64,000 nucleotides of DNA from a virus. Positions 36,590-37,936 of this stretch are shown here, piece by piece. Positions within the stretch are counted from its first letter, which is position 1. Every line of letters starts with the position of its first letter. A model generated the notes under the pieces. It saw only the letters and a list, made by a program, of their open reading frames with translations. It ran no database searches and was not told the origin of the DNA. The translations under genes and the position numbers were made by a program. Location: IMG/VR virus record IMGVR_UViG_3300037309_000179, positions 1 to 64,000 of that record; one strand, given 5' to 3'.

Positions 36590-37936
36590 TCATTCGCCGA
36601 CCCCGCCCTCCGCCTGGGCCTCCTCAAGGGTTTGGAACCGAATCCCGCCCGCATCGCAGTTCTGCCGCACTCGCTCTCGCAGGGCGAAATAGCGGTAGTG
36701 GCGGGCGTAGGTCTGATCCGTGTCGTCGTACACCACCGCCTCCACGCGATTCCGGCGGAGGAACCCGGCGACGCACGCGGCCACCTGTTTGGTGATCGTG
36801 TCCACGCGGTTGGCGTACTTCGCGCGCGCCGCCGCCCCCGCCTCGACGAACCGCCGCCGCCGGCGGGCCGGCCACCGCTTCTCGGACTTCAGGTCGTCGG
36901 CCCTGGCGTCGCGGTGCCGCTCGTGCCGCTCGCCGTGCCGCAACAGGTCCTCGACCGACTGCTCCGCCCGCTCGTGCGACGACAGCCGGCGGGCCGCCCG
37001 CTGCTCCGCCGACAGGTGCCCGAGCAGGTCGCGGCGGTGGACGACGAACGGGGCGTCCCGCTGCGGCAACTCCACCACCAGCAGCGCCAGCGGGTCCGTC
37101 CGCACCACCGCCGTCACCCCGGACGGCTCGGCCGGCCGCCGCCGGAACCGCCCGGCCGCCATCAGCTTCACCCCGGACAGCTTGCCGTTCGCCATGTCCG
37201 CGCACACCTTCACGTCGCCCAGCACCGCCGCACCCGTCACCAGCGCGTCGAAGTCCCGCACCTGCCGCCGCCAGTCCCGCCCCTGGTCCACCCGCAGCCG
37301 CACCCGCCCGACGCCGGGCAGCAGCACGTCCGCCACCGGGAACCGCCCGCCGGGGTGGTCCTGCCAGGCCAGATCGACCGCCTGCCCCGGCACGTGGACG
37401 GGGAACGGGAACCGGTACGTGCAGGCCGACGCCTCCCCGAGCCACAGCACCGCCACGCGGGTGTTCCGCCCGGCCGCCGTCCGCCCGGACTTCCACTTCT
37501 GCTCCACCGCCCGCATGGTGGCGGCCGCGGCCTGGGTGCTACCGTCCCAGGCGTCCCGGATCGCCGCCGGGCACACCTCGTTCCACCGGCGGTACAGGTT
37601 GAGGGCGGTGAACGGCGGCAGCCGGGTCATGTCCGGCGTCCGCCGGGTGTCGTGCCGCAGGAGTTCGGTCATCGCCCAGTTGGCCAGGTCGGTGCTCAGC
37701 CGCCACGCCCGCAGGAACGGCTCGAAGAACCGCCCGCGGAAGTCATCCGGGGTGAACCAGCCGCGGTCGACAGTGCCCATCACCTCTTTCACCTGGAGGC
37801 GGACGCACCGGTTCACCCACCCGGCGGCCACGCACGCCGGGCACGTCGGCCCGACCCCGGGAACGTCCTTCCACCCCTTCGGCAGGCGGGGCCGTTCGGC
37901 CGCCGCCCCGCACGCCCCGCACCGGAACAGGGTCAT
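36590..37936 (-). CDS. Array-adjacent 448-aa protein: candidate compact TnpB/Cas12-like RNA-guided protein lacking the TNB finger and RuvC-III
   Basis: ATG 37936 (ATGA coupling). N-terminal CGAC-x22-CPAC. The C-terminal block ANRVDTITKQVAACVAGFLRRNRVEAVVYDD...YFALRERVRQNCDAGGIRFQTL is RuvC-II-block-like. The ORF itself is solid; the family assignment is inference. Confidence 0.5.
   Translation of the reverse strand: MTLFRCGACGAAAERPRLPKGWKDVPGVGPTCPACVAAGWVNRCVRLQVKEVMGTVDRGWFTPDDFRGRFFEPFLRAWRLSTDLANWAMTELLRHDTRRTPDMTRLPPFTALNLYRRWNEVCPAAIRDAWDGSTQAAAATMRAVEQKWKSGRTAAGRNTRVAVLWLGEASACTYRFPFPVHVPGQAVDLAWQDHPGGRFPVADVLLPGVGRVRLRVDQGRDWRRQVRDFDALVTGAAVLGDVKVCADMANGKLSGVKLMAAGRFRRRPAEPSGVTAVVRTDPLALLVVELPQRDAPFVVHRRDLLGHLSAEQRAARRLSSHERAEQSVEDLLRHGERHERHRDARADDLKSEKRWPARRRRRFVEAGAAARAKYANRVDTITKQVAACVAGFLRRNRVEAVVYDDTDQTYARHYRYFALRERVRQNCDAGGIRFQTLEEAQAEGGVGE

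Follow-up and report, generated by a model that had tools for sequence, protein, structure and literature searches.

A truncated Cas12f-like protein with a predicted dead nuclease site, encoded beside a scaffold RNA and a CRISPR array in a high-GC temperate phage

The window analyzed here is a 64,000-nucleotide (nt) stretch of viral DNA (positions 1 to 64,000 of IMG/VR record IMGVR_UViG_3300037309_000179; 64 kb of a 67-kb contig) with a G+C content of 72-79%. It comes from a temperate tailed phage, with genes for a large terminase, portal, major head protein, tape measure, RecT, and methyltransferases, and a tyrosine integrase at 61520-62845. Its minus strand carries a gene for a truncated Cas12f-like protein, the ATG of which overlaps the stop of the upstream open reading frame (ORF), followed by a structured scaffold RNA and then by a CRISPR array (Table 1). 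For this protein and its family, we established homology, the loss of catalytic residues, a structured RNA, and the co-occurrence of protein, scaffold, and repeat across loci.

TABLE 1 Coordinates of features in the window and of scaffold matches in related loci (L numbers)
Feature	Position	Strand	Basis or remark
Truncated Cas12f-like protein gene, 448 amino acids (aa)	36590-37936	(-)	ORF and translation; stop codon 36590-36592
Zinc ribbon, N-terminal, residues 1-39 (C6, C9, C32, C35), with family motif RLPxGWK	37820-37936	(-)	Sequence; kept in close homologues
WED-like beta-barrel split by helical REC-like insert, residues 40-270	37127-37819	(-)	AlphaFold2 (AF2) secondary structure; profile and Foldseek alignment to Cas12f N-terminal half
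Degenerate RuvC-like domain, residues 271-448	36593-37126	(-)	AF2 model and profile alignment
Arg279 codon, RuvC-I catalytic Asp position	37100-37102	(-)	Hidden Markov model (HMM) alignment
Tyr403-Asp404-Asp405 codons; Asp404 at RuvC-II catalytic Glu position	36722-36730	(-)	HMM alignment
Structured scaffold RNA, omega/tracr-like, 149 nt	36444-36592	(-)	Starts at stop codon, abuts first repeat
CRISPR array, six 37-nt repeats, unique spacers of 36-40 nt	36037-36443	(-)	Same strand as gene, 146 nt past stop
Repeats	36407-36443, 36330-36366, 36257-36293, 36184-36220, 36111-36147, 36037-36073	(-)	
Spacers	36367-36406, 36294-36329, 36221-36256, 36148-36183, 36074-36110	(-)	
DUF4326 gene	35482-35958	(-)	
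HNH endonuclease gene	34630-35289	(-)	
DNA methyltransferase gene	39626-40723	(-)	
DNA methyltransferase gene	50663-52336	(-)	
L015 scaffold	118-266		R1 E 1e-14
L012 scaffold	3968-4116		R1 E 1e-12
L008 scaffold	1870-2020		R1 E 4e-9
L011 scaffold	1204-1352		R1 E 5e-9
L009 / L010 scaffold	1848-1998 / 1886-2036		R1 E 2e-8
L004 scaffold	5347-5497		R1 E 9e-7
L005 scaffold	3050-3190		R1 E 9e-6
L003 scaffold	2425-2590		R1 E 3e-4
L006 scaffold	5015-5116		R1 E 9e-3

An earlier reading of the window, made from the sequence alone, had described the protein as an apparent TnpB/Cas12 relative, and every motif that it listed is present in the translation, in the order and spacing given: C6-x2-C9-x22-C32-x2-C35, GVTAVVRTDPLALLVV (residues 273-288), RWPARRRRRF (residues 354-363), ANRVDTITKQ...VVYDDTD (residues 375-407), and YFALRERVRQNCDAGGIRFQTL (residues 416-437), with 11 residues more before the stop. 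An AF2 model calculated from an eight-sequence homologue alignment (mean predicted local distance difference test score [pLDDT], 82.8) contains, in order, a zinc ribbon, a long beta hairpin, a helical bundle, a beta-barrel, three strands, very long helices, and a final strand-helix-strand-short helix. Within the RuvC-like domain, the order is beta1-3, a long Arg-rich helix, beta4, a helix, beta5, and the chain end.

Used alone as a query, the 448-aa protein gave nothing credible against Pfam, NCBIfam, and PDB sequences (best E 0.11-0.16), and no match was returned from PHROGs or PADLOC. Its homology became visible only through a family profile and a fold search. A word-indexed search yielded eight homologues, which, the window's own protein aside, are 31-65% identical to it, and all share the same C-terminal end point. 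An exhaustive profile search then returned 927 cluster representatives at E ≤ 1e-3, 436 of them at E ≤ 1e-30, with clusters defined at 50% identity; most of the 150 family members listed are ~360-500 aa long, and matches reach the end of the profile. A second word-indexed protein search, with a 149-member alignment, made no additions. Family members tested against Pfam, NCBIfam, and PHROGs had no match at the default E ≤ 0.001, and one of four tested had a weak match in PADLOC. With three tblastn queries, no family member turned up in GenBank phages, nor were relatives found in GTDB genomes by strict protein patterns.

Foldseek comparison of the model with the PDB gave 45 matches at E ≤ 1e-3 (E 1.7e-14 to 9.3e-4), all of them TnpB, Cas12, or Fanzor proteins (Cas12f, TnpB, Cas12m, Cas12o, Cas12k, Cas12X, Cas-pi, Cas-lambda, and Fanzor), and the WED-REC-RuvC fold is common to the phage protein and the TnpB/Cas12 group. 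Ranks 1-21 were all Cas12f, with the nuclease-deactivated 9n9c at rank 7, and structure matches in BFVD were viral TnpB-like proteins. A sequence profile of 149 family members, searched against the PDB, likewise had only Cas12f among its top seven matches: OsCas12f (9nzq, E 1.9e-14), SpCas12f1 (9i8y, E 6.8e-9), and AsCas12f (8j3r, 8j12, 8dzj, 7wju, and 8j1j, E 4.7e-7 to 1.6e-6). The dCas12f structure 9n9c followed at E 4e-5, and 9nzp, deposited as TnpB, reached only E 0.0023. The TnpB/Cas12 relationship is therefore borne out by both the best Foldseek match and the best profile match, each to a Cas12f, and the ranking of modeled fold and profile supports Cas12f proteins as the nearest relatives of the phage protein. 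The N-terminal CxxC...CxxC zinc ribbon of the sequence-only reading is also real and is kept in 100 of the 149 members, usually with RLPxGWK between the cysteine pairs; it lies outside the Cas12f-aligned part, profile matches beginning at about position 43.

HMM alignment with OsCas12f placed "lvvrTd" over "LGVDMG," the RuvC-I motif, and the catalytic Asp therefore corresponds to Arg279. Similarly, "vvYdd" was placed over "IQMEDL," the RuvC-II motif, and the catalytic Glu therefore corresponds to Asp404. Finally, "agief" lay over "GIQVV," after which OsCas12f enters "INPRHTSQRCS," the start of the TNB zinc finger, and the phage family stops. In the 149 members, column 279 was occupied by R (68), K (16), H (15), T (13), S (11), A (6), C (4), and F (3), with no D or E among these listed residues, and Thr280 was kept in 135. 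Position 404 was Asp in 117 members and position 405 in 119. The possible RuvC-I-like strand of the sequence-only reading does align with LGVDMG, but its catalytic Asp has gone; the RuvC-II block with DD in place of E-D and the likening of the YFALRERVRQNCDAGGIRFQTL region to "L-x-YKa-x-x-G-x-x-v" were both upheld by these alignments. The residues D348, K350, E352, and R354 are near-invariant and lie in a linker aligned with a basic RNA-contacting stretch of Cas12f, modeled with low confidence (pLDDT < 50).

The third RuvC motif is absent. The chain ends before RuvC-III, 11 residues after beta5, and the median tail across the 149 members is 17 aa; the longest tails are of low complexity, apart from one apparent read-through, and no CxxC pair occurs in the 12 longest tails printed. 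The stop ahead of the TNB finger and RuvC-III, first seen in this single frame, is thus a property of the whole family, and the collection of homologues, in which fuller versions might have appeared, held only proteins ending just after beta5. Truncation by a frameshift or sequencing error was ruled out because all 149 relatives examined end at the same point. By alignment, two of the three catalytic positions are lost family-wide, as is the TNB finger. One subfamily (P0008, P0013, P0038, P0046, P0067, P0068, P0078, P0082, P0095, P0115, and P0131) extends 70-90 aa beyond beta5; this tail contains a conserved (K/R)GSHPxVS, then Ser/Thr/Pro-rich sequence, and may be left over from the segment that leads to the TNB finger or be a new acquisition for interactions.

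Downstream of the gene, the stretch of 146 nt from the stop to the first repeat is almost identical in four related loci (L001, L002, L013, and L016), despite an identity of only 61-65% between the proteins of the closest relatives and that of the window, and it can still be aligned in L014, at a protein identity of 39%. RNAalifold gave a multi-helix scaffold fold with 15 compensated pairs. A covariance model, R1, was built from six sequences (the window, L001, L002, L013, L014, and L016), and it found one full-length scaffold in each of the 17 other homologous loci whose sequence continues past the gene on its downstream side (E 1.9e-40 to 9e-3). L007 alone was without a copy, and its contig ends ~120 nt after the gene. 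In a 15-sequence R1 alignment, standard pairs filled 96.5% of pair cells and 28 of the 31 scaffold base pairs had both-sided changes; the covariation score was 0.685, versus 0.17 for shuffles and 0.05-0.11 for slid controls. No Rfam family matched the scaffold or the repeats. The sequence-only reading had the protein paired with an array "instead of an omega-RNA," and this part did not hold: R1 and the covariation place a scaffold between gene and array, fused to the first repeat.

In the window, CCGGTGTG of the scaffold is complementary to CACACCGG, which lies midway along the repeat. The corresponding segments are CGTTGGTGTG and CACACCAACG in L001 (short forms GTTGGTGTG and CACACCAAC), ATCCGGTGTG and CACACCGGAT in L013, and, with one mismatch, CCTGATGGCGTGT and GCACACCATCAGG in L016. 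Across this close clade, the pairing shifts in step on both sides and looks like an anti-repeat. RNAduplex gave no information on an anti-repeat in such GC-rich sequence.

Read on the gene strand, the window repeat is GCGGCAACTCCAACGGCACACCGGAACGAGTTGCAGG, which folds into a hairpin. Its copies follow GCGGCAACTCCAACGGCACACCGGAA(C/T)GAGTTGCAGG, the single variant base sitting in the two repeats farthest from the scaffold. The repeat ends in GTTGCAGG, and a 3' end of ..GCAGG recurs in arrays of relatives, whose repeat endings include GCGCAGG, GTGCAGG, TTGCAAG, TTGCGGG, GTGAAGG, and TTGCGGCA; several repeats begin CCGG(A/G). A 32-nt pattern of the repeat had no exact match in 185,579 species genomes (one per GTDB species) or in IMG/VR.

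Co-oriented arrays with a period of ~62-78 nt and related repeat 3' ends were present in eleven independent loci besides the window (L003-L006, L008, L009, L011, L012, L015, L022, and L023). Those of L004, L006, L008, L009/L010, L011, and L012 have 36-38-nt repeats, a period of mostly 70-77 nt, and unique spacers, and in these six, as in L022 and L023, the scaffold ends at the first repeat. The last two loci were fetched from IMG/VR with protein patterns of a different subgroup after this scaffold-repeat rule had been set, and both obey it, with scaffolds at E 8e-14 and 4e-9 that each end at the first repeat of a 6-7-repeat array. Other arrangements also occur: the array is upstream of the gene in L005, a short array directly follows the stop with the scaffold behind it in L003, and in L015, the scaffold is upstream of the gene with repeat units on both of its sides (1-460). 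L015 also has a second, partial scaffold match (E 0.68) from near the stop codon (1918-1982), cut by the contig end, and its gene may be flanked by two guide loci. L006, a 119-kb IMG/VR contig, has two arrays of the same repeat ~550 nt apart (5125-5667 and 6198-6865). Together they contain at least 19 copies, and the first array is the more degenerate one.

Among the closest relatives, L001, L002, and L014 are without an array. After the scaffold, these loci have one 36-37-nt repeat-like unit with the ending TTGCAGG or GCTGCGGG, and unique sequence comes next. To judge from the sequence, this layout is a natural single guide in which the guide occupies the 3' side. In every locus with enough flank, the gene is adjoined by an array or a single repeat-guide unit, so the link between gene and array drawn in the sequence-only reading is real. 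In all loci, the order is scaffold, repeat, and variable 3' sequence, the last being the putative guide.

We then considered the genes around the effector. Gene calls and Pfam matches in the window and the loci placed no cas1, cas2, cas4, transposition genes, or rpoE beside the gene; tnsB, tnsC, and tniQ were not among the called genes and Pfam matches of the loci, and no fliC or oppF/dppD genes were seen in the loci examined. An all-versus-all ORF comparison across 13 loci, from 3.5 kb upstream to 4.5 kb downstream, recovered only the effector as conserved. The window neighbors of the gene encode a methylase, a DUF4326 protein, an HNH protein, and unknowns; the DUF4326 and HNH endonuclease genes follow the array, and the window also holds the two DNA methyltransferases. 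In a different gene order, an N6_N4 methylase and an ERCC4 nuclease recur in both L001 and L002, and DUF4326 recurs in L002; these shared but reordered neighbors point to a mosaic early region. In one relative, the gene adjoins integrase, S24 repressor, and Cro-like genes, and in another, it converges on a helix-turn-helix (HTH) gene and an integrase. These positions in phage early or immunity regions fit expression in lysogens or early in infection.

In L001 (10136-10183) and L002 (3337-3421), the single guide is followed directly by a gene for a RecD2-like helicase, which in L002 carries a LAGLIDADG insertion (PF14528). The window and the array-bearing loci are without a helicase next to the gene. 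The window also contains a 91-aa ORF consisting of sigma-70 region 4 only (43418-43693, minus strand; Pfam Sigma70_r4, E 9e-8). It sits on the strand of the Cas12f-like gene, ~5.5 kb upstream, and nothing comparable was seen close to the gene in other loci.

We consider it likely that gene, scaffold, and array make up a phage-encoded, RNA-guided, non-cutting DNA-binding module descended from Cas12f. The interpretation given in the sequence-only reading is supported in this form, corrected for a dead RuvC-I and an omega/tracr-like scaffold; its preference for a binder or repressor over a nuclease would follow from the missing catalytic residues. Cleavage is not expected because these residues are missing (Asp replaced by Arg279, RuvC-III and the TNB finger deleted), and the protein retains the WED, REC, and RuvC-fold frame, which would hold the guide RNA and target duplex. 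A transcript running past the stop codon is probably the source of the guide RNA, which would consist of the 149-nt scaffold, a 37-nt repeat hairpin ending GCAGG, and a ~36-nt guide on the 3' side, by analogy with TnpB omega-RNAs and type V crRNAs. Six repeat-spacer units follow the scaffold in the window, so several guides are possible, and the closest relatives have a single fixed guide. Such scaffold-repeat-guide RNAs would load onto the protein, and the complex would bind complementary DNA without cutting it, most likely blocking transcription or replication in the style of CRISPR interference. The likely targets, in lysogens or at an early stage of infection, would be competing phages, plasmids, or host genes.

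Several observations weigh against this reading. No protospacer was found for any spacer or single guide in searches that covered the window, related loci, GenBank phages, and PLSDB plasmids, and the target class and the repression model are therefore conjectural. Spacers 2-5 would still need to be joined to the scaffold. The putative anti-repeat pairing spans 8-13 bp only, and distant loci show no anti-repeat above shuffles. The covariation was counted on an alignment fitted to R1, which favors the structure, the margin over controls still being large. Asp404/Asp405, together with D348, K350, E352, and R354, are strongly conserved, so that acidic residues are kept at the old active site.

In IMG/VR, the spacer search used exact 20-mers of three window spacers, two of which had no match. 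The 20-mer of spacer 5 matched an AT-rich viral contig (L017), and this candidate was rejected as chance because the identity does not reach beyond those 20 nt and the base composition is implausible for this system. Separately, the sequence after the last repeat (35997-36036, minus strand) matches 27304-27322 (plus strand) over 19 nt with one mismatch (E 0.004 in a small local database); this is probably a chance match in GC-rich DNA because it lies away from the repeat-proximal end.

The conserved acids raise the question of whether the protein is still a nuclease, either with a rearranged site (Asp404/Asp405 with D348/E352) or with a site completed by a dimer or a host factor. D348, E352, and the YDD motif are near-invariant, Cas12f acts as a dimer and the PDB fold matches hold two protein chains, and TnpB clades with rearranged catalytic sites, which probably stay active, have been reported (Altae-Tran et al. 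2023, PMC10691335). We nevertheless regard a surviving nuclease as improbable: the residues listed at the RuvC-I position in the 149 members include no acid, the entire segment with RuvC-III and the TNB finger is missing, and D348-R354 fall in the low-confidence linker, whose aligned counterpart in Cas12f is the basic RNA-binding stretch rather than a catalytic motif. It is more improbable still that the array is an ordinary virus-borne mini-array using host Cas proteins beside an unrelated gene. Phage mini-arrays without cas genes are mentioned as known (Medvedeva 2019, as cited in bioRxiv 10.64898/2026.09.14.751636), cas1, cas2, and cas4 are not present here, and the close relatives L001 and L002 have no array. 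However, those two loci retain, in the corresponding position, the scaffold plus a single repeat-like unit, the window repeat is unmatched in the genomes searched, and the neighboring protein is a Cas12f homologue. Gene, scaffold, and array also co-occur in twelve divergent loci, with repeats that change with the protein, and this co-inheritance contradicts a role for the array with host Cas proteins.

A different role for the same binding complex would be recruitment, in which it brings another factor to the target, as with dCas12f and sigma-E or Cas12k and TnsC, and is not a plain roadblock. A sigma-like protein, the RecD2-type helicase encoded after the guide in close relatives, and a recombinase are candidates for that factor. 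Recruitment of a sigma factor by dCas12f (PMC13472631) offers a precedent, and the helicase gene right after the guide in L001 and L002 and the sigma-70 region 4 ORF of the window offer possible partners. The N-terminal zinc ribbon is an addition without a counterpart in the aligned Cas12f region, and the conserved surface residues D348, K350, E352, R354, and YDD have no assigned role. Against this, nothing but the effector is conserved near the gene across the 13 loci compared, the sigma-like ORF is distant and specific to the window in this position, and no helicase adjoins the gene in the window or in the array-bearing loci. We therefore think recruitment unlikely and continue to favor a non-cutting binder that acts by itself.

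Other features of the phage genome were also noted. A tRNA-Ile (GAT) gene is located at 33071-33144 (plus strand). Beside it, the C-terminal part (33191-34150) of the ORF at 33191-34933 (minus strand), whose protein starts MTPEHALYLKVCEDPDDRLPRLALLDWW, has a sub-threshold match to TIGR02996 ("rpt_mate_G_obs," E 7e-4), a weak sequence match that points faintly to a Gemmata-like host or one from the Planctomycetota. A perfect 18-nt tandem repeat (GCCGCCGTCAGCCCGCCG; four copies, 100% identity) at 20983-21054 (plus strand) lies inside a 671-aa ORF (19249-21264) downstream of the tape-measure gene.

Compared with known systems, the phage family is like Cas12f (OsCas12f 9nzq, AsCas12f 8j12) in its WED-REC-RuvC order, its size of ~400-430 aa, the adjacent CRISPR array with ~37-nt repeats, and the separate scaffold RNA. 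It differs in the replacement of the RuvC-I Asp by Arg, the loss of RuvC-III and the TNB finger, and the extra N-terminal zinc ribbon, and the system is phage-encoded, has no adaptation genes, and has its scaffold fused head-to-tail to the first repeat. Natural nuclease-dead, C-terminally truncated Cas12f proteins have been described as dCas12f, one group of which occurs with sigma-E (Hoffmann, Wiegand et al., Nature 2026, PMC13472631; structure 9n9c). The phage family shares with these a Cas12f-like fold, a shortened C terminus in which part of the RuvC site (RuvC-III) is lost, and a scaffold with a 3' guide, but it has no rpoE or HTH partner and is found on high-GC phage contigs rather than Bacteroidota chromosomes. 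Its profile is much closer to active OsCas12f, which suggests a lineage apart from Fta dCas12f. A second, uncharacterized dCas12f cluster occurs next to CRISPR arrays that have covarying RNAs on their upstream side (PMC13472631), and the phage family may be this cluster or a separate one.

Both prophage-borne TldR proteins and C-terminally truncated dCas12f act as RNA-guided DNA binders (PMC10705468, PMC13472631). TldRs have TnpB as their immediate ancestor and occur in association with fliC or oppF/dppD loci, with guides that match the promoters there (Wiegand et al. 2024, PMC10705468). Like the phage family, they are small, RuvC-dead, often prophage-encoded, and proposed repressors, with a single omega-like guide after the gene, as in L001, L002, and L014; in contrast, the phage family has its closest kin in Cas12f, carries arrays at most of its loci, and shows no association with fliC or oppF. 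Cas12k and Cas12m, both among the fold matches, are likewise natural non-cutting type V RNA-guided DNA binders. Cas12k works with Tn7-like transposition genes, whereas none were among the genes examined beside the phage family, and Cas12m is a protein of ~600 aa that retains its RuvC domain and zinc finger. RuvC-III loss in Cas12f descendants, fusion of the tracrRNA to a half repeat, and several V-U groups with altered catalytic sites have been reported (Altae-Tran et al., PMC10691335). The phage family thus differs from published dead effectors in its high-GC phage setting, the absence of a sigma or HTH partner, the N-terminal ribbon, its proximity to OsCas12f, and the presence of both array and single-guide states among close relatives.

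A broader proposal can be made, which we advance with somewhat more doubt than belief. These proteins may form a very large, undescribed, phage-specific lineage of dead Cas12f (~400 aa) that serve as programmable silencers of rival phages, plasmids, or host defense genes. The guide locus would flip between an array and a fused single guide among close relatives, without Cas1-Cas2, as a living series of conversion between CRISPR array and omega-RNA, and the zinc ribbon would replace the lost TNB finger.

A natural effector of 400-450 aa that is predicted not to cut, with a guide RNA of ~190 nt, would be attractive for compact CRISPR interference and recruitment. For the evolution of these systems, the finding that the same scaffold is followed by either an array or one fixed guide bears on the interconversion of arrays and omega- or single-guide-RNA-like guides, a topic of previous work (PMC10691335, PMC13472631). 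For phage biology, the family would add high-GC bacterial phages to the settings in which nucleases have been turned into DNA binders, and would do so at scale, with 927 clusters.

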